64,000 nt of DNA from Lingula anatina (Eukaryota; Animalia; Brachiopoda), in NCBI GenBank assembly GCA_051362555.1, contig CM120649.1, positions 1,612,001 to 1,676,000 of the forward strand, given 5' to 3'. Under the pieces are notes generated by a model, which saw nothing but the letters and a program-made list of their open reading frames with translations, was not told where the DNA came from and searched no databases. The position numbers and the translations under genes were made by a program. This document shows positions 22,201 to 63,998 of this stretch, one piece after another. The first letter of the stretch is position 1. Each line of letters starts with the position of its first letter.

Positions 22201-22250
22201 TTTTGAATGTTCATTTTAATTTTCTCTCCTTTCAAAAATGGTGTTCAGTG

Positions 22251-22284
<34 letters not shown>

Positions 22285-31883: not shown

Positions 31884-32466
31884 CGCGTTGAGACTGCTAA
31901 TGTACTGGTCACTACTTTAAGTCGATCGTGAGTTATCAGCCTGGTGAGTGTATAGGTCAGAAGATCGTGACATGTTTGCAGGTTTGTTGACTTGACCCAG
32001 ATAGAACCACTGTATGCGATAACAATATGCAGCAGATCTACCGACTTTTGGATCGATGATGAAATAGCCTACGTACACCAGTGAGGCGATTTACCTCTTG
32101 CGATTTCGGTGGGATGTGATTATAAATAAAATGTTTCTATTTATAAACAGAGATCTGGAGCCATAGGGCGTGTTTCATAAGTTCCACCTAATCGCCTGAA
32201 TATGTTACTTGTATTATAGTTAATAAACAGAGATCTAGAGCCATAGAGCGTGTTCCACCTAATCACCCGTTATATCACTTGCTATATTATAGTTTATAAA
32301 CAGAGACCTTGAGCCATATAACTTGATATCAGTCTATAGAAGTTACTCTTACTGGGACTTGTTGCTATCTTTTGGTATCAACATTTGCGAAGGTGAATTT
32401 TCTTTGTATTTCCTTTTGCTGATACAACTTACACATTGAGGGCAATATAAGAAGGATACGGCCTAC

Positions 32467-33172
32467 CTTTATCGCACGATTTTCCGTGATAACCCAGGGG
32501 ACAAATGTGTGGCATTTTAAACTGCACACTTTGCGTCATTCCAGCATTCATTCATGCGGTACAGATCTGAAATGATATATTGGAAGGATCATAAAATTCT
32601 ACGCATGCTCTTTCAGTTGATATATTTCAATTCTTATGATTTAAGCAGCTACTAAGACAGGGTAACTGATATCTATTGAATGCATTTTGTACAGAATATC
32701 CACCTGACACTTTTTTGCGTACTTTTGCTCAGCCCTTTTTCATTTTCTTCAGAATAAAAAGCATTTAAATAGATGTTTTCAATTGTGCGTATACATAGGA
32801 CCACCCTGCGCGATCAACAAATCAAAAGATGATGTCAGCTCTCCCCATTGATCATTTTGCAGAAAAAAACTAAAAATAAATAAAGAAAGAAAGAAAGAAA
32901 GACATAGTAAATAAATAAATAAAGAAAGAAAAACTGTTACATATAGAGGAAGACCCACTGCTAATGGATAAATTGTATTAAATGAAGCATATCTGTTGGT
33001 ATAAATTGTTGCAATATGAAACTTGCTAAATTCTAACATATTTCTAACATTTTGTATAACTATTTCCTGTTATCCACAAAGGACGAAATTGTTATCAGGA
33101 CACTGCTTACGAAATTTTGCATCTACTTCCGAAAAAATCCCCAAGGCAAGAGCACTGAAAGCCAGACGGATC
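32467..33172 (-). pseudogene. Inverted pseudogene of the secreted EGF-module family
   Basis: 33111-33172 is the 3' half of the EGF1 exon (DPSGFQCSCLGDFFGSRC; acceptor deleted, +1 nt before gtaagc). 32467-32566 is the EGF2 exon (100 vs 114 nt; first Cys lost, TAA, frameshift; ICPLGYHGKSC). Flanking introns match the reverse complement of ~60410-60720. Confidence 0.88.
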
Positions 33173-33735
33173 CTCAACACTAAATGATTTGAAAACGTCC
33201 GCAGAGAGTACTCCAATCTGGGGCAGGAGGTCATGTGTTTGATCCCCATGACCTGGTCATACCAAATACCATTATAATAGTATATGCTGTCTTCTGGTGG
33301 AGCACTCAGCAAATAGAGGTTGGAGAAGGAAATAGACCTGGTCATATGTTAGTGCTGGTTATTGTGAATGCTCATTACGAGGGCCACATATGCTGCAACT
33401 TGGACTGGGATGAAACGATTTGAAAAGTTTTCAATAAACGATGCCCTGTTTACTGTCAGAGACTGTTTGCAGTTTTTTCATAGGCTTCGTTTGTTCAGCA
33501 TGAAAGGTGTATTTTATATTTGACCTAGAACACTTACATATAGGGATTTCTATTAACACGTTTGTTGCTTGGCAAATATTAGTTTTGAGGTAAAGCGACA
33601 AAGAAAACTCTGTTAGTAAATTTTTACTTGCAATATCGTTCAGTCAAATCAAATGTATTATATTCTTTTTTCCGTGACAGCGGTCTAACTGTCAAATTTT
33701 TCTCTCTCCCCCTCTCTCTCTTTCATGGTCGTGTG

Positions 33736-33786
<51 letters not shown>

Positions 33787-36737
33787 GTGTTGCGCACGCC
33801 TTAACAGCTAGGTAAGGGCGAGATGGTATTGGAATAACCTCCAAAAAGTTCAACCAGAGAAGGCCTCTCACACCAATGAGATACTCGTATTTCATTTGCA
33901 TCACATATAGTCAATATCTATGCCACTTTGATACAGAACGTCGAAGTTCAACATAATGGAAACCCCTATGACGTGTTCGGTAATATGAAATTACTTTCAG
34001 TATATGACTAATGAAAAGTGATGCTTGTTTACTGCCTCTACCTTTCCATACAGTTTGGTATCCATGTCTTTCTACGAATCATATCAAAACAATATCATTA
34101 CTTTTATATTTGAATAATGACAAAATTAAAGTATGAACCTGAATGTGTCTCATACAAACCTGTGCGTGCCATTAATCTAATACGTCTATACTTTGTCATT
34201 CATATACCTGTACATGGTTTCGTGTTTTAGAAATAAAGCTTCGACATTTGCCAATTGCAAGGTTTCAGCTCTCCCTATTTTATACAATTGGCCAAAAATA
34301 TGGCTTTTCTTGTAACCATAGCAACACGCATTGTTGGGAGTAAATAAAGCCGATATTGCTGCTTTGGGCCAAGGTCTGGTATAGGACAAAAAAGGAAGGG
34401 GATATATTTTTGACCCTTGTCACATATATTTGTTTCCTACAAACGTCTTTCAAGACCATTAAAATGCATCGCCACTGTCACAGTGTACCTCGTGGTAATC
34501 GCGGCTCATATGAGAACCCACCAAGTCTCGATCGTGCCCACTTTAAACATTGCAAGTCGTTTAGCAGAAAGACTCCATTTGACCCAGAGAGCATACCTGC
34601 AGGACCGACGATTCTATATTCAAACAAGCACTATTGTGATTGGATGGCTCCCCACGTGCCAAGTATTTTACACTGATATCATTTGCAGTATATTATTAAC
34701 CAGTAGGAAAGAGAATTTTATTGCCTGACCTGACATCAACCAGGAAAAACGAGGTACGTTTTATGTTATCTGAGAAATGTGTTGATCAGTGCAATTCTGA
34801 AAGTTGTTGGTGATCCCCGGCGCACACCGATTGTTGCTAAACAAAGAATGAAATGTTTCTCAGTGGTCCTGGTGGAAGGTAGTGCTTCTCTTCAAATATA
34901 TGTTCAGTTTGGCCGAGAAACTGAATGCGTCCAAAGACTGCCTTACAGGATAGTTCAGACTTCGAACAACTGCTTTTCTAATTTTAAGAGAGTGATAATG
35001 AAGGTATGAGAAAAGGCATTTTCCAGTTGTTGAAACTACTTTTTTTAGACTCAACCATAGAAACTCAATCATAGAGCATATGCTATTTCAAGGGAATTCA
35101 CCATAGATTTATGGATGCAGACTATCAAGCAAATTGAATTAAAGCTTATTGCCAAGCTACGGGCGTGTTAATAGACGCCCGTCGATCCTGCAGGTAGGAT
35201 CTCTGAGACAAATGTGTTATATCCATATCTGCTAGACAAAAACGACAGGTATTTTCATAGCCTGCAGGTGTCTTGTAACGTTAGTTTTTAGCCACATTTG
35301 GGTATTAAGATGAGCATGATCGTGACTTGATGGCTTCTTATGTGCCACGATTATCACAAGGTACACTGGCAATGCAGTTTAATGGTCTTGAAAGGGCAGA
35401 CGTCTGAATGAAACAAATATATATATGTGAATGCAGTCAAAATATATATCCCTTTCTTTTTGTCCTTTCCCAGACCTTGGTCCATATGCATCACAACCAG
35501 CTTATATACTCGTAACACTGATTGGTGCTATGGTGTCATAGCAAGAAGTCTTCAATGATTTTTCAGTAATCTCTTGGGCAGTAACATTCACAACTGATAT
35601 CTGACTCCATTTGCAAGCGTTGGCTGTGGACGTAACTTAAGGCTCCTTCAAGACCACACTTGTTTAGAGCTCTTATCTGGTTTTTGGTTTGTTGCTGAAA
35701 TTTATTTTTTTTTGTGCACTCCACAAACGTTAGGAAGTGAAGAAGGTATTGCACAATTACAAATAATATAATTATATTTGATTGTGTAGCTATTCAGGGA
35801 ATCATTTTTATTCTTGGAATATAAAAATAACAAATACTGACATTTTTAGCGTTTAACACACAAAAAAAAAAAAAAAAGAATCAAAATAGTATACTCAATC
35901 TATGTTGTTACAAATTTTACCATTGCGACTATCCCACTTTTCATGATACTTGTTATCATGAGACTGATGTTATTGCTGATACATTGGTGAGCTTTGCTTA
36001 GTACAATAATAAAACACGCTGAGTGAGGTTACTGTGTGACAGAATGTTCAGTGAGGTTAAGCTTCAATTTTGTATTGAAAGTGAAAAGTTAAAAACTTAT
36101 TATCAATATTATTATAAATATATTGCACAGATGAAATGTCTAAAGTAGCATTTGGAATACTTAATTTTGAAAATTGTTTTGCATTATGTGAAAAAACATG
36201 AAAAAATGTGCATCAGCGTATTTTTTGTATTATTATTATTATTATTTTGATTAAATAATATCCCATAAACAAATTATTCTTCACGTGTAAATTTACAGCA
36301 AACAAAAAATATTCAAAAAGCCCTGCGATCCCATGGCACAGTTTCAGTTTCATCTTTTCTGTCACGTTTACGTCTAATGATACCATCTTTTATAAGCTAC
36401 CAAGCTGATCAAGATGTCATCGTAACCAGCACCCAAACTTGGTGCCATATTAAATTATATTGGATGCTTTTTAAAATGATGAATCACGCGCGCGCACAGG
36501 TAACTGCAACGATTTTGCCATGAGCATTGGTTGCAAATTGTAATGCTCCCGAAAAAGATAATATATTGCCATATCGCCTTATTTGCGTGCCTCGTAATCT
36601 GCAATGTTTTCTTAACACAAGCCTGATTTAGTTTAAAGATTGTCATACCTGTATGATGATGCTGAAATCTGAATATCTTATTTTATTCCAGCATAGAAGT
36701 GCTTTAAAAGAGTACTATATCCAACATCAACCAATCA

Positions 36738-38849
36738 ATGATGGGATTGTTGTTCTGCCCGAATCTTGCTCTGGCCTTGGTGACGTGCGTCTTTCTCAGC
36801 CAAACTCAGCTGAGTGAAACTTGTAAGTGTACAGAGACCAACTTGACATCCAAGTTCATGTAAATAGTATGTTTCCAATTCTGAGATATGGTATCAATTT
36901 TAGTTTCAGCATTTTGGTCATTCTAAAAATTCCTAGGGCATTCCGACAGCATTCGAAACATACTGATCGCGTTCGAGGGAGAACAGAAATGGCAAGACAC
37001 TGCAAATCCTGCTAGAATGCACCGGAATGCAACTCGAATGCATCTCCATGGCTGGCGAAATCCTATTTCAGCCAGGAATCGAACTACACTACGGTATTTG
37101 AAGTGTATTCTAAATATTCTGACTGCATTCTGAAAGCATTATCGATATTCCTAGTTTTCCACCTGCATTCGAGTTGCATTTGAGAGCTAATACAGCCGAA
37201 ATGTGCTATCATGCTGTTAAATCATCAAAAAAAGGCGACCCTGCTTGTTTTGGCAGTAAATCCTATGAGATGGAGAAAGAACTTTCAGAAGAGGTGTGTT
37301 TGCTATTGATGCTTTGAGTGATACTGAGTCCATTGATTATTTAACATAATTTATCAAATTGACAAATTGCTACAATTGCTACAAAAAAGGACCCATGCAA
37401 TCTCCGTTAGACAAATAATGTTTTATTTAACTAAAAGATACCTTTTAAAACGACTAAAAATTCTACATTGCTATTGACAGAATCTGCCAAACGTGCCAAG
37501 TCAGCCATTTTGTTAGAAAGTATGTCGCGACCTTGCCCTTCCACTGCAAATTGTAAACATTGCATGAGGCACAACTAATCCAATGTCAGCTGTTTTGACA
37601 CTGACACTAAAATATCTTGTAGATATTATTCCGATTATTTTAATGAATGCACCATCTCGAAATATATTTTCTGTGGGTAATTTATTTCCCAAATTTGGTA
37701 TAGATCACTTTTTGCAACTATCATGACTTTTACAGTGTTTATAGCAACCAGTTACATAACGGGGCTGCTTTTTCCAAATTTGGTATCGGATAAATTTCTT
37801 ATCCACTGGATCAGTATCATGCTGTTTATCCAGCCTTTGTGAAACACAAATATATATAGATGATAACTATCCAGAGATAAGAGATTTATACCATGGGTAG
37901 TGTTATCCATAGTCCTATTAAACTAGTTTAAAATATTCAAGTATTCAGTATCAGCCAAGTGCCAACGTACATGTATTTTATTTGATCTCAGCAAAATGTG
38001 GGGAAAACGTCAAGTGTCCTTTCAGTCCGTTCAATGCCCCATTGCCTGGGAACAATGACAACTGCGATTCATTAAATGACCAACTTTGTGTTTGCAACGA
38101 GGGTTACAGTGGGGACGGATTTAACTGCATTAGTAAGTATTATAAAACATTTGGATTTTTGAATAGTTCCGTTTTTTTTTCTAAGCTTTCTATTGTAAGG
38201 CAGGCCAACATTTTGGATACTTAATGAAACAGAACAACGGCATTATTTTTTATAGAGATATAATCAAACACGTTTTGTTGCACGATCACGTTCATTTTAT
38301 GTTTTTGACTCAAATGCTCTGTCATCATTACTTCACTCGTTGATAGCTAGGCGGCACCGAAAATTAACACTTAAGACCGTTGCAAGGACCATATAAGTTG
38401 GTGGTTGAAAAAATAAATGATATAAATATAAATGATAAATTCAGAAATTTAACGTCCGGTAATGTCTATATTAATGGGAACTAATCAAATATTTGGGGAA
38501 AGGGTAGTATGTATTACATAAAGATATGTACTTATATATACGACGTTAATGAAAGTCTGCATGTTCATACGTATTTATTATTGTGCGTTGTTAAGCATTT
38601 GATATGCATGACAATATCTAAAAGTATTTAAAACGTTGAAAGTTCCGAGGGGCTTTCAAAGCCATTATTTCCACATAATTACCAACAATTTCATCTCTCT
38701 GTAATAATCATCATTTTAGTAAAAATGAAAACACTGAAGAATTTTGTTTGTACCTGTATATTACTGAATGCATCAAAATAGGCTCTAATATGAAAACGGC
38801 GTCAAGGTGTAAATAAAACATTTCTTCACTTACAGGATCAACGAAATAA
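36738..38849 (+). CDS. Secreted EGF-like protein paralog A (signal peptide + 1 atypical EGF module), 79 aa
   Basis: Exons 36738-36822, 37992-38132 and 38836-38849: MMGLLFCPNLALALVTCVFLSQTQLSET-SKCGENVKCPFSPFNAPLPGNNDNCDSLNDQLCVCNEGYSGDGFNCI-RSTK*. All introns are phase 1 GT-AG and conserved in the paralogs. Confidence 0.85.
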
Positions 38850-39121
38850 ACACCCAAAAAACGAAATAACTAAAATATACAGGAGAGGATGCACAATTAT
38901 TTGACTAATGTTAGAAAAAAATATATAATAAATATACATTTGGACATTCATTGAAAATTATATCTGAATTAAGGATATCAATTGAAAATAAAATATTTTG
39001 GGCATTACAATTAGTTCTTTTTAATTCTCCACAGTTTTCACATCTAATTTATCTCTGAAAATAAACTAATATGGGCATTGCGTTTGGTTATTTTTACTGC
39101 TTCACCATTTGCTGCACCATT

Positions 39122-45460: not shown

Positions 45461-45498
<38 letters not shown>

Positions 45499-45658
45499 GT
45501 TTCTACATTATATTCGTGTGTTTTAGTGACACACGCTCCGCAATTAGCAGTATCAAAGCACTCTTTTTACTTCAACTTTTTCATTTAGTTTTTATTTAAG
45601 GGAGGCAGCGTCCTTTAATTTTTCATTCGGTTCTTTCAATGACAGTTTATTTATCTAT

Positions 45659-45705
<47 letters not shown>

Positions 45706-46846: not shown

Positions 46847-49823
46847 ATGATGGGATTGTTGTTCTGCCCGAGCCTTGTTCTGGCCTTGATGGCGTGCGTC
46901 TTTCTCAGTCAACCTCAGCTGAGTCAAACTGGTCAGTGTGAAGAGACCAGCTCAACATCCAAGTTTATGTACAATAACATGTTCTCAGCGGGCAAATCAT
47001 GTTGTTTCAACGTTGAAACAGCGTTGAACTACCGTACATGTGTACAGCAAATATTGGAAAACATGTTTACTATTGCAACAATTGATGGCAGCACATATGT
47101 TTCATTTAATATAATGTTTCCATTATCAGTGTGTCTTTTAACAGGTGGGCATTTTGTACAAAATGAATTCCATAGATGTCAGTTACCCTGATTAGTAAAT
47201 GCTTAAAATATAAAAATTGAAATATGTAAACTGAAATAGCATGCGTAGCATTTTATAAACCTTAATTGTAATATCCTCATTTCAGGTTTGTGCGAATTCA
47301 GTAACTGCTTGAATGGTGCAACGTGTGCAGAAGATACTACAAATTCGAAAACCCGGTGCATTTGTCCCGAGGGATATAAAGGACCATCGTGCGAAATAGG
47401 TAAACCGTGCTTTTCTAATACTGTATATATTGTGTATCTCAGTATTGAAAGATAACAACAAATAGCTCTAAGTTGTGAATCATGCAGCAAAAGAAATTAC
47501 AAAACAAATTTACCAGCGCAAAAATTGATACCAGAAGATAGTAGCAAGAATCAGTAATAGACTTCTATAGACTGATAGACTGATACTAAGCCATATAGCT
47601 CTAGATTTCTGTTTATTAATTATAATGCAACTAAAATATTCAGGTGATACGGTGGACGTTATGAAAATGCGTCATGAAATAACGTCCATTAAGGCGGTTT
47701 AAAATTTCAAGTATCTTTTCAAATTACAGTATTTATTTGTTTTCAGCACAATGTGGGGAAAACGCCCAGTGCACTTACGCGCTGATTGATTTTCCAATGC
47801 CTGGGCACAATGACAACTGCGATTCATTAAGTAATGAACGTTGTGTTTGTAATGACGGTTACAGTGGGGATGGAATCAACTGCACTAGTAAGTCTTAGGC
47901 CGTATTCAGAACAGTGGAATAACTAGTCTGCTGGTCAAATGTGGCCGACCCACTTGAATACTTCCCCCTAATCTACGCAGTGTCTATTAGTGGATTGGAA
48001 GGTAGCGTTATTTGAACCATAGACTAATTAGTCCACTCTTCTTTGTCCCTCGGGACAAATGCACCAGGACAAATGCACCAGTTATTTTGGTACAGCAGAA
48101 GTTAGCTGAAATCATAACCTTAAAATAACCTAGGATCGACTCCCTCTCCCTCATGGACAGCCCAATCTACAGTTTCACAAAAGCTCTAAGTGCTCATGCA
48201 CACCCCTAGTGATAAGTATACCAAATTCCTTAAGTTTGAACTTTCTCAATCTAATGATCGAGGAAGAAAAAGCAGAAATTACGATATAGAAAAAGAAAAA
48301 ATAATAATATCAATCACCTCCGGGGACAGTCCAATCCCAAGTGTTACTAAATCTCAGTAATGCTCATGTACATCTTTGGCAAAAGATATTCTAATTACCA
48401 ATGTTTGAAATTTCTCAGCCTTTTTGTCTAGGAGACAACCGAACCAAGGGACAACCGAACCAAGGGACAGCCCAACCCCCTGTTGCAGTAAATTTCTGTG
48501 CAGGGATGCCCATGCACACTATTTAAGCTATCAAGAATACAATGTAAATATAAATAAGAATCCCCACCAACACTGACAAATCAAATCCCAGTTGAACTTA
48601 AATCTTCAGGTCTAATTATTCCCAAAGTTTAAACTTCCTTACCCTTATGGTCAAGGAGGAGTTAGCTGAAATTTCAAGTTAAAAAGAATTTGTTATCATC
48701 CAACTCCCAGGGACATGCCACCACACAATTCACTATGAAATTCCAAAGTCACCATGCACATGCTTCATAAAACAATAGGAAGGTCTACCATTACCGAAAT
48801 TTCCTCACTCTTGTGCTACAAGAGGGGATGGCAAAAATTACAATGTAAAGGGAATTAAGAATCAGAAGCAACTTCTTTTGTCTAAGAGGTGTGGGGATAA
48901 CAAGCAATCAATTTTGTCAAATGCAACGTTGTTTTGTCACTGATTACTATTTAACATAATGATAAGCCTGATAAAAATAATGAAATCTAAAAAAAGCAGT
49001 CTTACCCTGACCGTAACAATTTTAGGCCATTGTGGTAAATTATATCGACTTATCATAGACTGTGTTCCCATACATAGATCGATCCATCTGGATAACCGAC
49101 TTAAATATCTGTCATGCCTACCAAATCAGCTAGGGGGTAAGGATAAATACCCCCTTACAGCATTACTAGGCGTGACAGACATTTAAGCCGGCCAAGTTGA
49201 CAGTATTTTAGTGAGACTCTCTAGGGAGATAGATAGATCTAAATATCTGTGGGAATGGTCCCATAGTCAGCAATCAGATCTTTAGGAGTCTAAACTTAGA
49301 CCCATTGCGTTAAGATTTATTTATTTATTTATTCATTTATTTATTTTCCCCGCTCTTTGGTGACAAAATTCAAAGATATATTTTCCCGCCCGTCCGATAT
49401 TTTATGTTTTTGAGAGGACTTTTATTGTTTTTAATCGGCAAAATGGTAGATGCATTCTTGAATTAAAAAAAAAAAAATAATAAAAACATGTTCTGTGTTA
49501 TGATGATCAAAAACCTTTGAGTAACCTAAGAGTGCTAATAGGTAGTATTTTTTTTTGCTCCAGACATCTCACACGATGTCAATGAAAAACCAATTAAACT
49601 AGGCCGACTCTTAACAGTATGGGAAGTGCGGGGATGTGTGATGGCTACCCATTGTCGCCATCTAGTTGTGTATGAAACACGTCCCAGATAATTTGCTTCT
49701 TGTCTGGAGAAAACGATAGCCAATTCACAAGGGTACTTTTTAGAGTGAGAGAAAAAAAGGCGAGTTGAAGATTCTAATCAAGAGATAACAACACTCTAGC
49801 CAGTTGCAATATAGCATCTTTAT

Positions 49824-49900
<77 letters not shown>

Positions 49901-50951
49901 TTTTATTTTGAGTTTGGTTTATAAAAATAACTTTAGAAATTTGACGTCAGATAATGCCTATATCAACGGAATCTGATCAAACATTTGAGTAATGGAATAA
50001 ACATGCATGCATAACATTAAAATATGTACATAACATACAAGATTTATGTAAGTCTGTTCATTTAATATGGAAAAATGTGAAAGTACTTTAACACGTCAAA
50101 AGTTACAAGGAGCTCCAAAATAACATTGTTTCTATCATATTTATCATCACATTCATCTTATCATTTTTAATTAAGAAATAAACACTGAATTAATTTGCAA
50201 AAATGTTTATCAGCTTGGTAGCTGGATCATAAATGAAAATTATCAAACACAAGCCTAGAAAAATGGCTAACCGTTAGCTTTCCGTTGTGGGACAGGTAGA
50301 CAATATAAGACCAGGGTTAGTGGGGCGGATCCAGAGATATTTTCTGACAGTCTTCCAAAGTATATTTGCTGATTCATCGTCCATTTTTGACCGCCTTCCG
50401 ACAGAAAAAATTATAGCCATCAATATAAACTTGGAAATCTGACCGTCTTCCGGAAGACCCAGAAGACGGCCTCAATCCGCTCCTGATATAGACAATACCA
50501 GCTCTGTCATTTCTAAACATGTAATAAACACCGACCACAGTACTGACTGGAATTCAACCAAGATCCTTGAATCCGACTCGTCTGATATCCTACGTAAGAT
50601 ACAAGAGGCTATCAACATCAGCCGTCACCAGCCACCCATGAATAGGGTCGGGAAGGTCGATCTACCTGACATTTATAAGAGGGTCGTGGCCTCTATATAC
50701 TATAAAGTCAAACTTAAAATGATGACAGTGAGTATCAACATCTACGTACTCACGTCAGTCTGATGAAGGCCAACGTCCACGTTGGCCGAAAGCTAACAGT
50801 ATGAACGTTTTCTCGGCTTGTGTTTGATAATTTTCATTTAAGACTGAATAAATGTGTTTGTATATTACTGAATGCACAATGTGCTCTGATAAAAAACGGG
50901 GTCAAGGTGTCCATTAAACATATTTCTTTTCTTTCAGAATCGACGAAATAA
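46847..50951 (+). CDS. Secreted EGF-like protein paralog B (signal peptide + 2 EGF modules), 117 aa
   Basis: Exons 46847-46931, 47286-47399 (LCEFSNCLNGATCAEDTTNSKTRCICPEGYKGPSCEI), 47747-47887 (QCGENAQCTYALIDFPMPGHNDNCDSLSNERCVCNDGYSGDGINCT) and 50938-50951 (KSTK*); all introns phase 1. Confidence 0.9.
49826..49896. repeat. (TA)n microsatellite; others at ~42005-42065 and ~11672-11702
   Basis: Direct inspection. Confidence 0.95.
50331..50485. mobile_element. MITE (ggggcggatccagagata... family; inverted copy ending at ~27123)
   Basis: Ends ggggcggat / atccgctcctg. The left end matches the reverse complement of 27103-27123. Confidence 0.6.
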
Positions 50952-51181
50952 ACACCGGGAAAATGAAATAACAACCAAAAAAAAAAAAATGCAAGACAGG
51001 ATACACAGTTATTTGATTAATTTAAGAACCAACATTTTAATAAATATTCATTTGGACATTCATTGAAAATTATATATGAATCATGAAGTATTTTAATTGA
51101 TAATAAACTAATTTGGGCATTGCATTTGGTTCTTTATACTGCTCCACATTTTGCTGCTCCACATTTGTTTTGATATTTATG

Positions 51182-51219
<38 letters not shown>

Positions 51220-52232
51220 AGACAGAAATGGACATTGACGACGCCTTACGGTTACTGAGTTTTTTTTTTATGTTTTTTTTAATATTTCAATAACAAATAC
51301 CACATAACCAAACTCACCCGTTAGCCACAGCAGTCTCACAGCCAGCTGTAATTATTGGTCTATTTTATGGGTATCAGAACATGTTTCGTCAAAAAGCGAT
51401 TGCAGGGAGCTATCTATTTTATTGTAGTTCTAGAGGTAGTTTATACATCTGCATGTTCGGATCAACTCTGACAACGACTGTCAAACAAACCAAACCATTT
51501 TGCCGAATTATTATTTCACAAAACTTTATAAACTTCTCACATTGGTAATTCTTCTCTTTTCGACTAAATGCCCTTCAATATTGAGATATAGCTTAAAGAG
51601 CTTTTAGATACATATTTATTATATGTAATGAGGAAGTTTTTATATGACTAATTTGCTTTTTTTGCCATTTACAACTGCACTACAAACGTCTAACTAAAAA
51701 TGATGTACTATTCCACTTACATATTTGTTTAACTGTTTCGACATGATTTAAGATAATTACAATGTTACTTAATAGGTTAAGATAGTGAGACACGTTACCA
51801 AAATCAACTAACATAAAACCTACATGTTACATCTTGGAAAAAAAATAGCATTTGTCACTCTGATGATCGTGTCTTTTGTTACTGCATCTGCCGATACTGT
51901 AATTTTGTCAGTTTGTCAAATGTAAAAGTGAACATTTTTTTGGTTTTGATTTGGTTCGTGGAAAGACATGGTCGCCAAACAGTATGGTAAAGCAGAGTTC
52001 GTAAACAAATATCCCTTTTCTTTAGTCATATACTGGAAGAAAGTCGTATTATCCAACGCGTCATGCGGTTTCCATTATGTTTGACTATGACGTCCTTTAT
52101 CACAGTAGCACTTAAAATAACTGGTTGTTGCAAATAAAATAGCTCATTGGTGTGAGAAGAATACTTTTGTTTAATTTTTTGGCTATTATTCCAACAAATT
52201 CTCGCCATCACCTAGCTGTTTAGGGATGCACA

Positions 52233-54396
52233 CGGCTGTTTCAGGATCAGGGTGAACAATAAAATGTGGTTAATGTTACAAGTGTCTGATAAATTAATAA
52301 TTTATGATTGGAGATTGCTGATAGACTAATATCAAAGACACTGTTCATAGGAGCAAAATAAAAAAAAAAGAATTATAATAATCAGATTGTAGTGTATTAG
52401 CCTATGTATCGTTTACGCGTCACGCCAGGTGTCGCATGACACCTGGTACCATGTGACTTGACGCGGGAATCTTGAATGTAATAAAGCAGAACTCACAACA
52501 AGATTACAATTTACAAAAATATAGCCAATTATGTGTTCAAAAAGTACCCGTTTTTAGCTGTTACTGTGGGTCATTTGCAGTTAAGGTCATAAAGATGATG
52601 CACTAGCTCTTTATGTCAGTGATTTATGGTGAATATGATATTTGTATATAACTCCCACAACATCTGTCTTCTATTCTAGCAGGTTCATCCATAGATATGT
52701 TCTGAGAAAAAGAAATATTTTAACCATTTTGCAGAAACGGGCTTTGATACACATTTCACTTATTTTTGTTAATGCAATGAAAAACATATTTGATAAGGTC
52801 AAATATTACTTTGAAATCACCTACGTGATAATAAGATAAATTTACCTTAAACATAATAAAGGAGTTGTGCATATGTAACCATTATTATTAATGCTATGGT
52901 ATTTATAATCATGAGCCCCTTGGTGTCTCCTACTTTTTGTAGTGTCCGTACCCCCCCCCCCCCCCCCCTATCTGTTTTATTTAGGAATCACAGCATATTC
53001 TGTCTGATTTTATTATTCTATAATGTCTACACTGACATTTATTTTGCAGGAAATAAATAGCACATAACCCCTTATTATGAAAAGATATGCAATAATTTGG
53101 TGCCAAATGTAGTGTCCGTACCCCCACTGTAGTGTCCGTACCCCCAAGTTATACATTAACCATTGGATAACTAGCTACTTATCAATGATGATAAAACATC
53201 AAAATATGGTGCAAAATACTGTTTTAGACTATATAAAATGCATTCATGTCTTGTGATGTTTAAAAAAAACATTGTATATAAATATATATTCGATAAAGTG
53301 ATACTGATTAATTAGAGTCAGGCAAGAGATTTTGCAAAGAAATAATATCAGTAAAGATGCTACTCTTTGCATTCAAAATTAACAATATTGGTTTGAATGT
53401 ATTGCCAAATATAGCTAATTGCAAAATAATAAACTGTATATGGATTAATATTCTATGGATTAATGTATATAATATATTTTGAGGCGATATGAACACTTCA
53501 ATACATGCATAATTAACAGTACATTTATTATACTCTCAGTGAATGAAGTATCAAATATGGATGGCAATAAACAAAAAGCCAAATAGGGAAAGAAAAAATA
53601 ATTTGAAAAAAAAAAAGACGTCAAAGAGCTAATATCCGTAAAGATAATCTTGCTGTAGCAGGCAAGGAAGACGTTATACGTTAAATGCACGTAATATAGA
53701 AGAGAAGAAAAAAATGAAGAATCATCCTAGGCTGGCCCAGCAAAAAAGACTAAAGTAAAGAGAAGAAATTAGGGCATACTGACAGAGAGTTAAGGAGAAG
53801 CAGAAACCCAACAATCCTGAAAACAGTAGAACAAGAGGTGCAAATTAATGAGAGACGAAGAAGAAGAAAGGACTTCAAAAACAGGAATCAAGACTGAAAA
53901 AAAAAAAATGAATAATTAAAAAAGGTCAAGCAACAGAAAGAAAAGTTAAAATTAAAGTCTGGTGAATGAAAGTCACACTGAATGACACACAACCAAGCTC
54001 CAGCATCCGCTGAACAACGTGCTGTGGTGTTTCTCTAAAAAACTCTTTGATTAATACATGTACTTGTATCCTTTTGGTTAAAGTACTGCTGTTATATCTT
54101 TAGTTTGATATTTTTTAGAATTTTGGCAAAAATAACTGGTAAAAAATATTATATTTCAGTTACAAAAGCATCAGTTACTTGAATGTGTAGTGTCCGTACC
54201 TCCAGATCATAGTCTAAGGGGCGTTCTGTTAATTTGAGCGTAGCACAAAAAGTAATTAATATTGTGCTCTAAAAATTGTAGATATCATAGTTAAGATGTT
54301 ATTCTTTTTATCTTTTACAAAATTACACAAATGCATCAGAGTTCATTTTTCTCTCAATGTGACCCCTATTTTGTACCCCTGATTGTGAAACAGCTG
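52233..54396. mobile_element. ~2.2-kb degenerate DNA-transposon-like insertion specific to the B-C spacer
   Basis: Imperfect ~29-bp TIRs (cggctgtttcaggatcaggg / ccctgattgtgaaacagctg), four internal tgtagtgtccgtacc repeats, and absence from the A-B spacer. No intact transposase ORF. Confidence 0.7.
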
Positions 54397-54408
54397 ACAG
54401 CACACACA

Positions 54409-54457
<49 letters not shown>

Positions 54458-55809
54458 CATTCCAAGGATGGAAGGATTTGTTTATTTGTTTATTTACTCG
54501 TTTGTTTTATTTACTAAATCGTGTTTGATGACAAATTCCAAATTTGCATTCAGAATAAGCAATGCGACCTAACAAGCATCGCTTTTCATATAGTCATATG
54601 GTGGAAGTAATTTCATATCATCCAAAGCGTCATACGGGTTTCCATTATTTTTAATTCCTACGGCCTGTATCAAAGTAGCACTGAAATCAGCTGGGTGACG
54701 CAAATAAAATAAAATAGTTAACTGGTGTGAGATGCCTTCTTTAGTTTAATGTTTTGATTATTTTGGCTGTTATTCCATCACTGTGTCACACACGCACACA
54801 CACACACACACACACGGCAAAGAGAGTTGAGCTAGCAAAGATGAGAATAAAAGAACTGATCGATGACTGCCACGGATAGAAGGATATATAATATTTGATT
54901 TAACTGAGCAATACAAATATAATATTGCAATATAGACCTTAATGAACTCTGGTTGAATATTTTTGGCTATCTCTCACTATCTTTCCCCAATCCAGTAGTT
55001 TTTGTGGCGCACAGACACAAACACACGAGAGAGAGAGAGAGAGACTTAATTTCATCAGAAATCTTTATCGTAAGAACTGGGTCAATTCCACGGGCAACAT
55101 AACAATGAAAAAGACAAATTGTTGGCTAGAGTCTCATTTACCGCTTTACCTCAATATTAATATTTGCCAAGTTACGGGAGTGTTAATGGAAATCACGACC
55201 TGTATGAAGATTTTCTAGGTCAAATATAAAAATACACGCTTCATGCTGAACGAAAAAAGCCAATGAAAGACCGGCAAATGGCGTGTGATAATAAACTGGG
55301 TATCCTATAGTCAAATAAGCGCTATCGTGATTGGATAGTTTCTCATGTGCCACGTTATTCACGAGATACGCTGATGTCCCAGTGCTGGAAGTGAGGAGTG
55401 AGGAGACGTTGCATTTCCTGACCCGACTTCGACGAGAAAAAAGAAGGTAAGTTTTATGTTAACTGTGAAATATTCTGATCGGTGTAATTCTGCAAATTTA
55501 TGGTGATCCCCTGCACACACCAATTGTTGGCAACTAAGCAGTGACAACTCTCTCTGTGGTTCTGGAGGTGCTTCCTCTCAAATATGTGTTGTTCATGTTT
55601 GACCAGGAATCCAATGAACCTAAATACGAACAAAGAGTGATTAAAACAGGAGATGATTACCTTGGTTCAAACTTTGAACAACCGCCTTTTGAATTCTAAG
55701 AAAGGAATAATGTCATTTTCCATTTGTTGAAACTATTTCAATCATATAAAGTGCAAATTTTATTTCAAGTGATTTCATCATACATTTATCGCTACAGATT
55801 ATCAGACAA

Positions 55810-57050
55810 ATTGATTTGAAATTTATTGACATTGTACTGGCGTCCTAATGGACGCTTGTCGATCCTGCAGGTATGTTCTCCAACATAAATGGATTATATC
55901 CATTTCTGCTAAACGAAAAACAGCTGGTATTTACAGAACCTGCGAATGAGTTGCAAAAATGGTTTTAACAATATTTGGTTATAAGATGAACACACTCTTG
56001 ACTTAATGGGTCCCCATATGTGTCACGATTATCACAAAGTACACTGTGACACTGGCAATCAATTCTTATGGTTTTAAAATGTAGTTGTCTCAATGAAACA
56101 AATGTATGTGACCACGGTCAAGGAATAGATATCCTTCCTTTTTGTCCTGTGTCAGAACTTGGTCCAAAAGCACCAAAACCAGTTTTATTGCTATGGTTAC
56201 ATAGCTAATTTTTGGCCAATATTGTGAAAATCTTACAATTGTTAGGTTTCGAAGCCTAATTAAAGACATTAAACCAAGTAGTTTATTTTAGAAAGCCGAT
56301 TCAGATAAACCGTAGTTTTAACTTTTTGTGGTACTTTTTGCATTATTAGATGTTTGATGTCTCATTTGTCGCTTGTATGCGAAGTGTTGTTAAAATTAAC
56401 ATTTTGACCAATTCTTTGAATTCATTCCAATGATTTGAAATTAAATGACATTCTACGGGCGTGCTAATGGACGCTCGTCGATCCTGCAGATATGTTTTCC
56501 GAGAAAAATGGATTATACTCATTTCTGCTAAACATAAAACAACGGGTATTTACAGAACCTGCGAATGAGTTGCAAAGTTGGTTTTAACAATATTTGGTTA
56601 TTAAGATGAACACAGTCTTGACTTGATGGGTCCCCATATGAGTCACGATTATCACAAAGTACACTGTGACACTGGCGATGCATTCTAATAGTTTTAAAAG
56701 GGCAGTTATCTGTAAGAAACAAATAGATGTGGCTAAGGTAAAGGAAAAGATATTCATACTTTTTGTCCTGTAGCAGACCTTGGTCCAAAAGCACCAATAA
56801 AAAAAGAAGCTTTATTTACACCCAAGAATGCTTGTTGCTATAGTTACAGGCAGAACCTGATTTTTGGCCAATTTATTTTTAAATCGGGAGAGTTGAAAAC
56901 CTTGTAATTGGTAGGTATTGAAGCCTTACTCTTAAAACATTAAACCAAATACATTATTTTCAAAATCTGATTCATATAGAACGTAGTTTTAACTTTTTTG
57001 CCGTACTTTCAGAATTTTTAATTAAATGATCGAAATGTTGTTAAAGTTAA
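55810..57050. repeat. Local ~600-bp tandem duplication within the B-C spacer
   Basis: ~55810-56410 and ~56430-57050 are homologous to each other and to ~44470-45070. Confidence 0.8.
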
Positions 57051-57419
57051 CATTTTTTTTTTATTTCTGAAAGAGTTCCAGAAGTGGTGCTTTGTAAAGT
57101 TTTAGATTCCTAATACGTGGATCAAAATAAGATTTGATTATTCATAGCAAGAAGAGCAAATCCTCTATCGTTTTATCAACTATGTTCATTTATCCATTTA
57201 GGAGGCCAGATTGAAATTTCTCAATATTTCCAATTTTCGTATATATTTTATAGTGCCTGACTCAAATCAATTTAAAAATTTAATATGTTATTGGTCATGA
57301 GGGTAGTTTTGAGGAGGTTGATGTTTTAAATTTGTAAAAATGGTGTGAAATATTGGTATCTTCACAGGTACTTTGTATTTTGACAACCATATGTCTTGTT
57401 ATTTTTGGTATCTGGAAAA

Positions 57420-57948
57420 ATAAATAATAATAATATTTATTTATAGTCTTAACTCCAACATATGTTCAATAGACTTTACAGAATATATAAAATTCACAAT
57501 TAAAAGAAAAAAAGATACTAATGGTCATAAAATGAAAGAAGGAAAATGATAGAAGAAAAATTGTTTAAGTTATAAAATAGATATATAAAATGGTTTAGAG
57601 GTGAAAATTAAAACTATGAACTAAGAAACAATTCTTACAAGAATTCAAAAATAATATTGCATAAAAAGGTAGGTTTTAAGTTCCTTTTTAAAATGTCCAG
57701 GGTCTACAATTTGTCTATGGTTGATGGGTAAATTATTCCATTCTCTAGGTGCTGTAATTTTAAAAGCCTTGTCACCGTATGACACCATGCAATCTTGCCT
57801 TACACGCCTTAAAAAGAAGGTACTCACCTGATCTAAGATTTCTTGCTGATGTATAATGTGAAACAAGCTCATTTGAATAAAAGGGTGCAAGTTAATAAAA
57901 TGCTGCATGTGCAAACGTTAAAAGTGCAACTTCATTAAAACAGGGGCG

Positions 57949-57950
<2 letters not shown>
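57420..57950 (-). mobile_element. 3' fragment of an L2/CR1-clade LINE
   Basis: IAPVLMKLH remnant and YGDKAFKITAPREWNNLP...FKKELKTYLF (typical L2 ORF2 C-terminus), followed by a simple-repeat tail. Confidence 0.85.
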
Positions 57951-58007
<57 letters not shown>

Positions 58008-59469
58008 TTTTATTTATTTTTTATTTTTTTAGTGCTGTCAGTAGGAGAACAGATATGCTCTGTACATGAGCACTATCTAAAACAGTTTACAATTGTACGG
58101 TCATCAATTATTATTATATAATTATGTTTTAACTTTATTTCCATTTATTATAGAGACAAACGCTTCACAAATAGCAGTGTCATAGCATTATTTTTACTTC
58201 AGCTTATTCATTTCCTTATGAAGGGGGGCATCCTTCTTTCAGTTTTCATTGGATTATTAATGAAAGTTTATTTATTTATTTACCTATTTATTGACCTATT
58301 TATTGTTTGTTTGTTTGTTGCTTGCAAATATAGCAATCAAGTATTTGCGATGTCAATGAATTCCACTTCCTTTCTTGACATCTTTGCAATCACAACGCAA
58401 TATTTACGTAGACGGAAGTATAATTATAGCTTCAAACTAGACAAAAGTTGAGTCGTGCCATAAAATGAAAAAGACATTGCACAATTACACATAATGTAGT
58501 TATATTTGATTGTGTAGCTAATCAATATATTACAGGTACTTTCATTCTTGGGATATCAAAATTACAAATATTGACATTTTATGCGTTTGACACCACTAAA
58601 ATTCCAAAATCATATTATTTGTAATATATCTATGTTGTTACATATTTTATAATCCCACCATTCAATGCGCGATGCTTGTTATCATGAGACTGATGCTATT
58701 GCTGATACATTGATGAGTAGTACTCAGCCTCATAAGATAAAACACGCTGAGGGGGATAACGGTGTAACTGAATGCTGAGTGAGGTTTAGCTTCAATTTTG
58801 TGTAAAAAGTGAAAAGGTAAATCTTATTATTATTATCGATATACTGCACAGATCAATTGACTTAGCTATTTTTTTAAATGTTTAATGTTGAAAAATGTTA
58901 TGCATAATATGATAAAACATGATTTTATAAAATGTGCATCAGTGTATTTTTTGTCTTTTTCTTCTTCTTATTATTACTATTATTAAATAGTATTCCATGA
59001 ACAAAGTATTCTTCACGTGAAAATTTACAGCAAACAAAAAGATTCTGATCGAAAAGCCTTGAGATCCCACGGCAGAGTTTAAGTTTCATCTTTTCTGTCG
59101 GATTTACAGAATGATACCATATCTTATATAAGCTACCAAGCTGAGCAATATGTTATCGTGACCAGCACTTGATGCCATCTTAAATTACATTGGACGCTCT
59201 GTAAAAATGATGAATCACGCACACGCACAGTTAACTGCAACGATGTTGCCATGAGCATTCGGTTGCAAATTGCAATGCACCTGAAAAAAGATAATATATT
59301 GTCATATCGCATTGTTTACGTGCCTCGTAATCTGTGATATTTTCAAGAAAGCAAGCCCGATTTAGTTTAAAGATTGTCACCTGTATGATGATGTTGAAAT
59401 CTGAATATCTTATTCTATTCCAGCATAGAAGTGCTATAAAAGAGTACTATATCGAACATCAACCAATCA

Positions 59470-62400
59470 ATGATGGGATTGTTGTTCTGCCCGAGTCTTG
59501 TACTGGCCTTGATAGCGTGCGTCTTTCTCAGTCAAACTCATCTGAGTCTAACATGTAAGTGTATAGATACCAGCTTGACATCCAAGCCCTTACGGAACTT
59601 TCCTATAGGATCCTATAGGGCACCTTCCCATAAGATTTCCTATAGGATATTATAAGATTTCCTTATAGGGTTCTATAAGATTTCCTATAGGATCCTATAG
59701 GAAAATGGGACAATTTCCTATAGGAAATTATATAGGAAATCTTATAGGAAATCCTATAGGAAATCCTAAATTTTCGTAAGAGAGTTCATGTACAGTAGCA
59801 TGTTTGCAATTCTGAGATACAATGTCAATTTTCGTTTCAGCATTTTGGTCTCAACATTGCTTGTTTGCAACAATCATATGCCTGTTTTTATGGATCTTTT
59901 CAATTCTAAGTCATTCCCACCTTCCTGCGGAGAATGCAATCCAAGCTGCGGTATATCCGCCTCTTGTAGTTAAGAATCCACAATAACCATCACTGCCATA
60001 TGACTAGGTATTTTCCTTACTTCAATCTTAATATACTGAGTGCTAAGCGAGGAGACAGCCGATATTATTATTATAATGGCCTTTGGTATGACCAGGCCAT
60101 GGTGTGGACACTTTATACCTGTAAATCATTTAGACGTGGTCCAGGCGTTCAAGGCGTTATAGTGTAAAAACGATAAGATATGCATGATTTATCTATTCAA
60201 ATTGTTTGAATTTCAAAAAGTAATTAAACTATATGTGTGAAATATTAGAGCATGCCTGATATTTAAATTGCCTTATAACATCTATTTTCAGTCGGATGCG
60301 AGTCTAACAGTTGCTATAATGGTGGGTTTTGTGATGATAAACCTGACGATCCGTCTGGCTTTCATTGCATTTGCTTTGATAAGCATTTCGGAGAGAGATG
60401 CGAATTGCGTAAGCAATGCCCTTGTGACGTTTACTAGCCTCCTTTGTCGATAACAGGGAGTAGTTATGTATAGCAAAATATTAGAAAACAAGTTTACTTT
60501 TGCAACGATTGATGGCAACATATATGTTTCATTTAATATCATTTATCCATTATCAGTGTGTCTTTTAACAGGTGGACATTTTGTACAAAATGAATTCCAT
60601 AAATATCAGTTACCCTGATTAGTAACCTGTGCAATGCTTAAAATATAAAAACTGAAATATCTAAACTGAAATAGCATGCGTAGCATTTTATAAACCTTAA
60701 TTGTAATATCCTCATTTCAGGTAATTGCAAATGGGGTTACTGCTTCAATGGTGCAACGTGTGCAACAAATACTACAAATTCGAAACAGTTGTGTATTTGT
60801 CCCGAGGGTTGTAATGGAAAAATGTGCGAAATAGGTAAACCGTGCCTTTCTAATACTGCATGCATTCTGTATCTGAGTATTTAAGGATAACAATTAATAG
60901 CACTAAGTTGTGAAGCATGCAGCAAAAGAAATTACAAAACAAATTTACCAGCGCAAAATTGATGCCAGAAGATAGTAACAAGAACCAGTAATAGTAACTT
61001 CTATAGACTGATATTAAGCCATATGGCTCTAGATCTCTGTTTGTTAATTACAATACAACTAACATATTCAGGTGATAAGGTGGACGTTATGAAAATGCGT
61101 CATGAAATGACGTCCATTAAGGTGGTTTAAAAGTTTAATTTTTTATTTTTGCAGGCAAGTGTCAACGTACATTTTTTTATTTGTTTTCAGCACAATGTGG
61201 GGAAAACGCCCACTGCCAATACAAGCCGCATAAAATTCCATTGCCTGGGAAAAATGACAGCTGCAATGCATCAAATCATGAAGGTTGTGTTTGCAACGAG
61301 GGTTACAGCGGGGATGGAATCAACTGCACTAGTAAGTCTTAGGCCGTATTCAGAACAGTGGACTAACAAGTATGCCGGTCAAATGTGGCCGACCCACTTA
61401 AATATTTCCCCTTAATCTACTCAGTGTCTATTAGTGGATTGGACGGTCGCGTTATTTGACGCCTAGGCTATAGTTAGTCGACTCTTCTGATTGAATAGTT
61501 ATTTTGGTATAGCAGAAGTTAGCTGAAATCATAACCTGGCAACCGTTTCACAAAAAAACTTAAGTCGGTTTCCCTGACTAAGAGCTTGGTTACCAACGTA
61601 ATTAAGTCGTTACGGCACTAAGTCCCGTTTCACAAAGAATCTAAAAGGTCGCTTACGTCGTTTTTTTCTTAGCTGCTAGTCGACGATGTCTAGCCTCCTC
61701 GGGAGGAGCCTTAAGTCGGCAAGCTCAACTAAAACTCGGTAAATGAGAGCATAAACAACAAAAAATTGGAAAGAACATACCTCCTTCACGATATTGTGTT
61801 ATGATATCCTTGAATAGCACTGAAATTTATGGAATATTGAAATTAAAAATAAAATGCCACTTCACCCAGCCGATGGCGTGTTTGTTTATGTTTTTGACCA
61901 CTAGACATCCTTCAGCAGTGTTCCACGACAAGCTAATGTTTAACTGATTAGTAAAACTAATCAATAAAGTTCAAAAACAAACTTTGTTTGTGTTTTGGCT
62001 GATTTTTATTGTTGATAAACGATCGTTCTCGGCCGAGAGAGGCCATAAAATGTCATGTCTTGTGAAACTTTTGAAATTTTAAACCTCCTTTTCTTGAAGA
62101 GTTTCTCGTGCGCGTCGACTACGGTAAGCACACCAAGCTACGACTTTAGATTCTTTGTGAAACACTCCTAGTAGACTGCAGCGTAGTCGACCCAGCTAGG
62201 CCATTCAGTTCGAGCTAGTCAACTACGGATTTAATATTATTTGTGAAACGGGGGCCTGAAATAACTTAGAATCGACTCCCCCCCCTCGAGGACAGCCCAA
62301 TCTACTGTTTCACAAAAGAAAAACAAGGGCTCATGCACACCCCTAGTGATAAGTCTACCAAATTCCTAAAGTTAAATCTTTCTCACTCTAATGATCCAGG

Positions 62401-63998
62401 AAGAAAAAGCAGAAATTACGACGCAGAAAAAGGAAAAAAATACAATAATATCAATCACCCCCGGTGACAGTCCAATCCCAAGTGTTACTAAAACCCCGTA
62501 ATGCTCATGTACATGCTTGATAAAAGATATTCTAATTACCAATGTTTGAAATTTCTCAGCCTGTTAGTCTAGGAGACGAAGGAAAACACAAGGTATTACA
62601 AGAAGGATCAACCGCACCCAGGGACAGCCCAACCCCATGTTGCAGTAAATTTCTGTGCAGGGATGCCTATGCACACAATTTAAGCTGTCAAAAACACAAT
62701 GTAAATATAATTAAGAATCGCCACCCACACTGACAAATCAAATCCCAGCTGTACTAAAATCCTCATGTGCGAAACTCAGGTCTAATTATCCCCAAGGCTT
62801 AAACTTCCTCACGCTTATGGTCAAGGGGGAGTTAGCTGAAATTTCAAGTTAAAAAGAATTTGTTATCATTCAACTCCCAGGGACATGCCGCCACACAATC
62901 CACTATGAAATTCCAAAGTCACCATGCACATGATTCATTAAAAATATTAAAGTCTATCAATACCAAAATTATCTCACTCTTGTGCTACAAGAGGGGATGG
63001 CAAAAATTACAGTGTAAAAGGAATTGAGAATCAGAAGCGACGTCTTTTGTCTAAAAGGTGCGGGCATAACAAGCAATCAATTTTGTCAAGTGCAATGTTG
63101 TTTTGTCACCGATAACCATTTAACGTCATGATAAGCCTGATAAAATCACGAAATCAAATAGCCGTCTTACCTTGACCGGTGTAACAGTAATCAAAAGCCC
63201 CCTACGGACCTCGGTTCCTGGTAATGGTTGTCCGTAGGACTAACATTACTAGGGAATAATAGTCCTGCAGGGACTTAGGTTCCTGGCTCAGAATTAGAGT
63301 AGGTAGGACTTGTATTACTGTCGGACTTTCATTCCTATTTCATTCCTATGACGGTAATACAAGTCCGGCCATTTGAAAGTCCTATCTTTAGGCAATAATA
63401 CGGATAAATGAAAAAAACGGTGTTTTGACGTGGCTGGAGCAACATTGATTTTACGTTGAATTTAGGTAAATCAACGGCAATTCAACATATCTACCTGTTT
63501 TCAACGTTGATCCAACGTCACTATGCCTGCTGGGAGGGTGAATGAACACAGAAAACCAATGACTGTATATTGGCAATACCAGATCTGCCATTTCTAAACG
63601 TGTAATAAATACCAGTCACAGTACTGTCTGGAATTCAACTAAGATCCTTGAATCCAAGTCATCTGATATCCTACGTTAGATACGAGAGGTTATCAACATC
63701 AGCCGTCACCAGCCACCCATGAATAGGGTCGGGAAGGACAATCTACCTGACATTTATAAGAGGGCCGTGGCCACATATTGGTCACTGAGTATCAACATCT
63801 GCTCAAGTCATTCTGATAAAGGCCTTCATCCAGGTTGGCCGGAAGCTTCCAGTAGTTTTCTAGGCTTGTGTTTGAAAATATTCATTTACTACTTTATAAA
63901 TGTGTTTGTATATTACTGACTACGCAATGTGCTCTAGTAAAAACGGGGTCAAGGTGTCCATAAAATATATTTCTTTTCTTTCAGAATCGGCGGAATAA
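59470..63998 (+). CDS. Secreted EGF-like protein paralog C (signal peptide + 3 EGF modules), 156 aa
   Basis: Exons 59470-59554, 60292-60408 (GCESNSCYNGGFCDDKPDDPSGFHCICFDKHFGERCEL), 60721-60834 (NCKWGYCFNGATCATNTTNSKQLCICPEGCNGKMCEI), 61191-61331 (QCGENAHCQYKPHKIPLPGKNDSCNASNHEGCVCNEGYSGDGINCT) and 63985-63998 (KSAE*); all phase 1 GT-AG. Confidence 0.9.
59587..59782. mobile_element. CACTA-like MITE made of tcctatagga palindromes, in intron 1 of paralog C
   Basis: TIR cccttacgga / ttcgtaagag with 2-bp TSD ag. Empty site catccaagttcatg in paralog A (~36847) and an equivalent in B. Confidence 0.9.
61539..62255. mobile_element. PIF/Harbinger-like MITE in the last intron of paralog C
   Basis: TIR gcaaccgtttcacaaa / tttgtgaaacgggggc with 3-bp TSD ctg. 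Absent at the equivalent site in paralog B (~48120). Confidence 0.85.

Follow-up and report, generated by a model that had tools for sequence, protein, structure and literature searches.

The window analyzed here, a stretch of 64,000 nucleotides from the brachiopod Lingula anatina (contig CM120649.1, positions 1,612,001 to 1,676,000), contains a tandem family of genes for predicted secreted proteins built of epidermal growth factor (EGF) modules. The original prediction, made from the letters alone, described conotoxin-like hypervariability in two of these genes and proposed positive selection on a binding surface. Our results argue that positive selection has quite probably acted on a subset of the EGF-module codons.

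Organization of the locus

Self-BLAST of the window identified three tandem copies on the + strand, designated A, B and C, together with an inverted and scrambled relic. The copies share a common plan consisting of an 85-nucleotide signal-peptide exon, phase-1 EGF exons and a predicted last coding exon of 14 nucleotides. One EGF exon is present in A, two in B and three in C, and the predicted proteins comprise 79, 117 and 156 amino acids, respectively. Open frames, splice sites and framework cysteines are retained in all three copies, AG/GT ends and phase-1 joints are found at all coding exons, and each of the six EGF exons encodes one EGF domain with phase 1 on both sides. The features are as follows.

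36738..36822, +, copy A signal-peptide exon (28 codons and 1 nucleotide), homologous to the signal exons of B and C
37992..38132, +, copy A atypical EGF module exon, the sole EGF exon of A
38836..38849, +, short terminal coding exon with stop, predicted for copy A by homology (predicted splice)
46847..46931, +, copy B signal-peptide exon, sharing 26 of 27 residues with P0004
47286..47399, +, copy B canonical EGF exon (EGF2) with an O-fucose-type motif, C-x4-T-C (Pfam EGF 28.1 bits, cut-off 21.5)
47747..47887, +, copy B atypical EGF module exon (EGF3), C-5-C-15-C-7-C-1-C-10-C, with a hypervariable loop in codons 9-31
50938..50951, +, short terminal coding exon with stop, predicted for copy B by homology to A and C
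59470..59554, +, copy C signal-peptide exon, without any difference from P0002 over residues 1-28
60292..60408, +, copy C canonical EGF exon (EGF1), not in A or B
60721..60834, +, copy C canonical EGF exon (EGF2), a seventh cysteine replacing a conserved tyrosine (same residue in P0002)
61191..61331, +, copy C atypical EGF module exon (EGF3)
61869..61901, +, last coding exon of copy C in the RefSeq model P0002 (tblastn, 10 of 11 residues), alternative to 63985-63998
63985..63998, +, short terminal coding exon predicted for copy C, a homologue of those in A and B
32140..34546, -, relic of a family member, inverted and scrambled, with a truncated EGF1, a frame-broken EGF2 and flanking intron pieces (self-BLAST, DNA alignment, tblastn)

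The EGF1-EGF2 segment of the relic, which matches 59937-61084 in copy C, corresponds approximately to the segment absent from A (59850-61112 in C; 36920-37911 on the A side), and because of this correspondence the relic at 32140-34546 may represent A's own displaced exons. A break is found at 46983-47041, where copy B is without EGF1; a short piece there also matches 41111-41157 and is probably a repeat. Each copy has kept an upstream GT donor (ending at 34753, 44106 and 55446) approximately 2-4 kb 5' of the ATG, which probably marks a predicted non-coding first exon. From 44044 to 46842, one DNA-type contig of run X2 fuses upstream-exon-like sequence to the start-codon region with 37 letters between them, which could reflect a paralog without the first intron, a retrocopy or an artefact. 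The first intron of copy C contains a local tandem duplication of approximately 600-950 bases (55812-57417), and its second intron an inserted palindromic array of short CCTATAGG-type repeats (59599-59768), an array that A lacks.

The gene family and its atypical EGF module

A profile search with the EGF3 exon returned two full-length relatives among 26 candidates, both from Lingula anatina, and one partial starfish match. P0002 (XP_013390330) is copy C, of which it represents one other allele, with 2 differences in residues 1-152 and a different last exon, a match that marks the window as DNA of Lingula anatina or a very close relative. Further family members, all labelled Lingula, are P0004, P0009 and P0026 with its isoforms. 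In a search of 1.84 billion representatives yielding 82 matches, only P0002, P0009 and P0026 matched the module end to end in their best stretch, and in a search with the signal exon P0002 and P0004 were the sole matches among 4 candidates. The EGF3 cysteine spacing was present in 7 of 97 proteins compared, all from Lingula. Among the databases searched, full-length relatives of the family were found only in Lingula anatina, and neither the EGF3-profile, the representative-database nor the signal-exon search returned a protein for A or B.

Denoting canonical modules E and atypical modules L, the architectures are L in A, E-L in B, E-E-L in C, E-L-E in P0004, E-L-L in P0009, L-L-E-L-L in P0001 and E-E-L-L-L in P0026; judged from these arrangements, modules appear to be shuffled between genes of the family. 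The module tree had little resolution overall, with A, B and C clustering at 94/100. The Pfam EGF cut-off was passed by EGF2 of B as well as by P0001, P0004, P0009 and P0026, while EGF1 (20.7 bits) and EGF2 (12.8 bits) of C scored below it. The chains of P0002, P0004, P0009 and P0026 have 155-251 residues and end shortly after the last EGF module.

The sister genes carry the automatic database labels Delta, Jagged and Crumbs. These do not fit, since the five family proteins scanned contained no DSL or ZP domains; no membrane anchor was found in these five either, and neither a DSL nor a laminin-G family of Pfam was detected in P0002, P0004, P0009 and P0026 at E 0.001. Databases thus mislabel the family under the names Delta, Jagged, Crumbs or mussel glue protein, although it is built on a variant of EGF that our searches showed in Lingula alone. 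No published description of it was found in the literature searched, which returned no paper for six accessions, included the 2015 supplement in part and lay mostly within open-access papers. A study of Lingula reported recently expanded gene families, EGF shuffling, a heterozygosity of 1.6% and young matrix genes under positive selection; the family is undescribed in the passages and the part of the supplement covered (PMC4595640).

Nine of 12 aligned atypical modules have the spacing C-5-C-15-C-7-C-1-C-10-C, and the rest have loops of 13-14 residues. Across the alignment the framework is fixed, the loop columns hold 4-8 different residues, and most changes fall within a stretch of 23 codons lying between cysteines two and four. 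The C-terminal half of the module matches Pfam EGF_3 at 18-24 bits, below the cut-off of 28.5. A model of the module of B (predicted local distance difference test score, pLDDT, 85) has strands at residues 6-10 and 30-34, and its sole structural match was a weak one to an EGF domain of NELL1 (Z 3.3, root-mean-square deviation 1.9, 31 of 46 residues aligned). Foldseek gave no match to this model at E 0.001, the top rows being EGF proteins at E 0.66 or worse; a search of solved structures with the module profile gave 0 matches, and the Atlas search returned only generic EGF clusters (best 0.90). The whole-protein model of P0002 had a middling pLDDT of 69. The EGF_3-type domains of NELL1/2, thrombospondin, uromodulin and nidogen, which resemble the C-terminal half and are the top structural matches, differ in cysteine spacing and lack approximately 15 loop residues present in the module, and these matches are weak. 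In our interpretation, the first two cysteines of the module would be the usual second and third, the usual first having been lost, and a cysteine within the long loop would replace it, thereby stapling a 15-residue variable display loop. The module would then be a small disulfide scaffold that apparently tolerates a fully variable loop of this length. The conserved NGATC motif in EGF2 conforms to the O-fucose consensus given in the part consulted of PMC9265791, an ordinary EGF feature.

Exon divergence and tests for selection

Recounting of the differences between B and C reproduced the numbers of the original prediction. The EGF2 exons (47286-47399 and 60721-60834) differ at 25 of 114 nucleotides, with 14 replacement and 2 silent codons, and the EGF3 exons (47747-47887 and 61191-61331) at 26 of 141, with 17 replacement and 3 silent codons. 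In the signal exon 8 of 85 nucleotides differ (4 replacement codons, 3 silent codons and 1 base in the junction codon). The 85 nucleotides 5' of EGF2 contain 2 differences and the 80 nucleotides 3' of it 11, where about 12 had been counted. The value of 2/85 is a local minimum, and divergence is even over the introns of the coding span (variance 9.7 over 21 bins of 100 nucleotides, compared with a binomial value of 9.0). The fair intron baseline is 211/2122 differences over the coding span (9.9%) and 558/5313 over the whole duplicate, not 2/85.

The EGF exons (51/255) have diverged twice as much as the coding-span introns (p 5.5e-6), in line with the faster divergence claimed for the mature exons, and no coding-span intron window matched the exon counts (maxima 20/114 and 23/141). 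Silent sites of the EGF exons (6.5/52) are not above the introns (p 0.26). Comparing dN with dS and with intron divergence, as the original prediction had suggested, we found replacement sites (0.23-0.25) above and silent sites (0.10-0.125) approximately at intron level, the whole-exon dN/dS ratio being borderline. Likewise, the differences are mostly non-synonymous by count, but since non-synonymous sites make up about three quarters of all coding sites in any case, this is borderline by itself: counting gave an omega (dN/dS) of 2.0-2.9, with p 0.056 (unweighted), 0.016 and 0.004 at a transition/transversion ratio (kappa) of 1, 2 and 4, respectively, and a kappa of about 2 was obtained from the introns. 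Adjacent changes were not in excess in the introns (46/211, with 0.19 expected), and the clustering of changes is therefore exon-specific. After runs were collapsed to single events, the difference between exons (35/255) and introns (186/2122) persisted (p 0.009). CpG mutability was rejected as a cause of the exon excess, 8 of the 51 exon differences being CpG transitions and 33 transversions.

In EGF3, the loop (codons 9-31) differs at 21 of 69 nucleotides compared with 5 of 69 in the rest (p 0.0008) and thus holds 21 of the 26 changes. This loop, the atypical module and the shuffling of modules were not part of the original prediction. The NGATC, CGEN, PG.ND and GYSGDG motifs and the loops PFSPFNAPL, TYALIDFPM and QYKPHKIPL were confirmed as described. 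Framework cysteines, said to be fixed, are indeed kept in A, B and C, but EGF2 of C has gained a seventh, and B and C use different codons at 2 of the 12 framework cysteines (few sequences). Signal identity among the family members compared was 21-26 of 27 residues, compared with 17-27 of 43-44 in the module; for B and P0004 the module value was 18/43. Copy C has three N-glycosylation sequons, none of them in B.

The codon and site models used are our own implementations, not PAML, and the codon tests rest on three copies, the site-model data being EGF3 from A, B and C and EGF2 from B and C. A joint model of introns and codons with the coding-span introns as clock gave an omega of 2.74 (p 1.7e-7), with 3.18 for EGF2 and 2.43 for EGF3; the signal exon, as internal control, gave 0.64. 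A codon-model test had also been proposed in the original prediction. Run on codons only as M2a versus M1a, it yielded a likelihood-ratio statistic of 13.4 (p 0.0012), with approximately 16% of codons at high omega. The result held with free multi-base changes (p 0.012) and for B and C alone (p 0.002), and 0 of 85 null simulations reached the observed value. Posterior values above 0.9 were obtained for EGF3 codons 9, 11 and 13 and EGF2 codons 1 and 22; the three EGF3 codons lie in the variable loop and encode three different residues across A, B and C.

Several observations weigh against selection. With codons alone and whole exons, pairwise likelihood gave an omega of 2.2 with p 0.10, and the EGF3 values for A-B and A-C were 0.77 and 0.96, values that neutrality would predict but that loops saturated with changes on a fixed frame would give as well. 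The site model assigned the remaining codons an omega of about 1, so that these three copies alone give no signal of purifying selection, and a conserved tyrosine in EGF2 of C has changed to cysteine. Three non-coding blocks differ between B and C by 6.9%, 17.9% and 9.9% (p 4e-22). The genealogy of A, B and C also switches along the gene (p 2e-26): in three consecutive upstream blocks, the sites at which A, B or C alone differs number 117/9/9, 21/20/41 and 28/43/25. The copies have therefore undergone conversion or unequal crossing-over, and the caveat of gene conversion raised in the original prediction proved real; conversion and multi-base changes are both named as confounders in the part consulted of PMC12737323. 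With the 17.9% block as clock, omega falls to 1.41 (p 0.059), the silent count is compatible with an age of 17.9% (P 0.13 at pS, the silent proportion, of 0.18), and 6.6% and 12.5% of exon-length non-coding windows reach the divergence of the exons, all of them in 45054-46600.

Expression of B points in the same direction. RNA reads without tissue label, from three runs that belong to three different studies (6, 6 and 25% of the respective run), were mapped to the B region 44001-50958 only; EGF reads of C would not map onto B at 85% likeness, and the mapping speaks to B alone. No RNA read was found on the bin with the B EGF2 exon in any of the three runs, the depth on the signal-exon bin was 0-2.3 per direction, and none of the joints listed (15 of 105) came from RNA. 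Because of the zero depth on the EGF2 bin, B is either silent, limited to a stage or tissue, or inducible. RNA depth in the bin with B EGF3 was rejected as evidence of expression, this bin including a repeat (DNA depth ~11,750). A contig of run X2 that matches the ends of EGF3 but not its loop was likewise rejected as independent evidence, because copy C itself would produce such a contig.

Taken together, these points would suit a history without positive selection, in which the copies are older than their introns suggest, the introns have been homogenized by conversion, and loops drift under relaxed constraint in possibly decaying genes. The exons would then have kept or imported older sequence, in keeping with the mosaic genealogy, the three levels of non-coding divergence and the omega values against the oldest block and against A, and the extra cysteine in C, the exons lost in A and B, the broken relic and the lack of B reads would be signs of decay. 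Against this, the introns flanking the two EGF exons and the one separating them are evenly diverged, at a level that silent exon sites share; the site test makes no use of introns and stays significant with only B and C; and all three copies keep frames, splice sites and framework cysteines. We therefore consider neutrality rather unlikely and retain positive selection, which is backed by the excess of exon over intron changes and the codon-only site model and is qualified by real recombination and an effect size that depends on the clock (2.7 or 1.4).

Possible functions and neighbouring genes

The binding surface that had been proposed is putative, and secretion of the proteins is predicted. 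We tentatively favour, at close to even odds, that these are duplicated, predicted secreted EGF-only proteins whose expanded loop is diversified by selection for copy-specific, fast-changing external targets, likeliest microbial or parasite surfaces in host defence. Tandem duplication would have produced copies with different module numbers, positive selection would have changed the loop so that each copy binds a different target, and diversification would proceed by birth-and-death duplication, exon shuffling and conversion. Host defence is ranked first because of a resemblance to MgCRP-I of Mytilus: the diversity lies between paralogs rather than alleles, copies have been gained and lost, divergent bodies follow shared leaders, and expression is low. 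Gamete recognition is ranked next and a toxin is least likely; that the defence role is argued by analogy only counts against it. According to the parts consulted of PMC4558851, MgCRP-I is a lophotrochozoan secreted multigene family with a conserved leader, a hypervariable mature part between six fixed cysteines, an M1 versus M2 selection test, multi-module members and very low expression, and a candidate defence family. Unlike the Lingula family, in which every EGF module occupies a separate phase-1 exon and a propeptide is absent, it has a propeptide with dibasic cleavage, mature peptides of 25-38 residues in one last exon and a cysteine codon bias (PMC4558851). A broader view, which we regard as doubtful, is that Lingula has evolved a germline repertoire of variable binders of its own for non-self recognition in immunity or fertilization, with an EGF scaffold rewired around a stapled 15-residue hypervariable loop, phase-1 exons shuffled behind a common signal exon into proteins of 1-5 modules, and diversification by positive selection.

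If selection is real, the proteins could instead act in gamete recognition, as secreted EGF proteins of the egg coat or sperm comparable to ascidian HrVC70 or the sperm protein SPE-36. Lingula spawns freely into seawater, and gonad-limited expression would account for the absent B reads. HrVC70 and HaVC80 have EGF repeats with polymorphism between the third and fourth cysteine and O-fucose sites (PMC9265791, in part); the variable loop of the Lingula module is predicted to lie in the same inter-cysteine interval, and EGF2 keeps C-x4-T-C. However, the HrVC70 precursor has 12 EGF repeats and a ZP domain and is strongly polymorphic between individuals (PMC9265791), while the Lingula proteins have 1-5 modules, lack ZP modules and membrane anchors in the five members scanned, and vary between paralogs, the other allele of C differing at only 2 of 152 residues. 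Nemertean egg proteins that vary in their EGF domains also carry ZP modules, as HrVC70 does (PMC11673550, in part). Gamete recognition is therefore unlikely in our assessment.

A structural role, as adhesive, mucus or shell-matrix EGF proteins comparable to mussel foot protein 2 whose diversification would be driven by material properties, is a very improbable alternative. The source of P0001 names it 'adhesive plaque matrix protein 2', but this label is automatic like 'delta', 'jagged' and 'crumbs'. The shell matrix of Lingula is rich in EGF proteins, and positive selection has been reported for young matrix genes (PMC4595640, in part); the EGF-bearing proteins in the part consulted of the 2015 shell supplement, which uses other identifiers, have at least 774 residues (places 3-32 of 86). 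Five family accession strings gave 0 matches, compared with 21 for a control, in the part consulted of a 2026 shell-proteome supplement (PMC13425148), A and B being without accession, which counts against a structural role.

Defensive toxins acting on EGF receptors of predators, like sea-anemone gigantoxin I, are barely credible: small secreted EGF-only peptides are toxins in anemones and perhaps bloodworms, and the evolutionary pattern fits toxin families, but gigantoxin-type precursors have a propeptide, a single canonical EGF, venom expression and no atypical module (PMC4202326, in part), whereas here 1-5 EGF modules directly follow the signal and no toxin was among the homologs found in database searches. 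The family has neither propeptide nor basic cleavage site. We know of no venom apparatus in Lingula. Conotoxins combine a signal peptide more constant than the mature region with a fixed cysteine frame and an excess of replacements. The description 'conotoxin-like' fits the Lingula copies in this pattern but not in anatomy, as they have no propeptide, a predicted EGF fold in a multi-EGF body, cysteine codons that are not frozen and a much lower omega.

Accelerated exon evolution in secreted cysteine-rich families is already well known, and the pattern itself is unsurprising. For brachiopods, in which immune and fertilization molecules have been little studied, the family provides a concrete arms-race candidate with named codons.

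Elsewhere in the window, an F-box and SPRY gene (Pfam), which we take to be FBXO45-like, lies at 10714-11376 (-), with a probable continuation at 7531-7845 (-). Downstream of copy A, decayed sequence at 39048-40100 has no Pfam match and resembles by eye the remnant of a non-LTR (long terminal repeat) retrotransposon. A multi-exon gene at 19245-26150 (+) has a signal, a weak LAMP-like luminal match and a hydrophobic C-terminal segment, resembling a lysosome-associated membrane glycoprotein.

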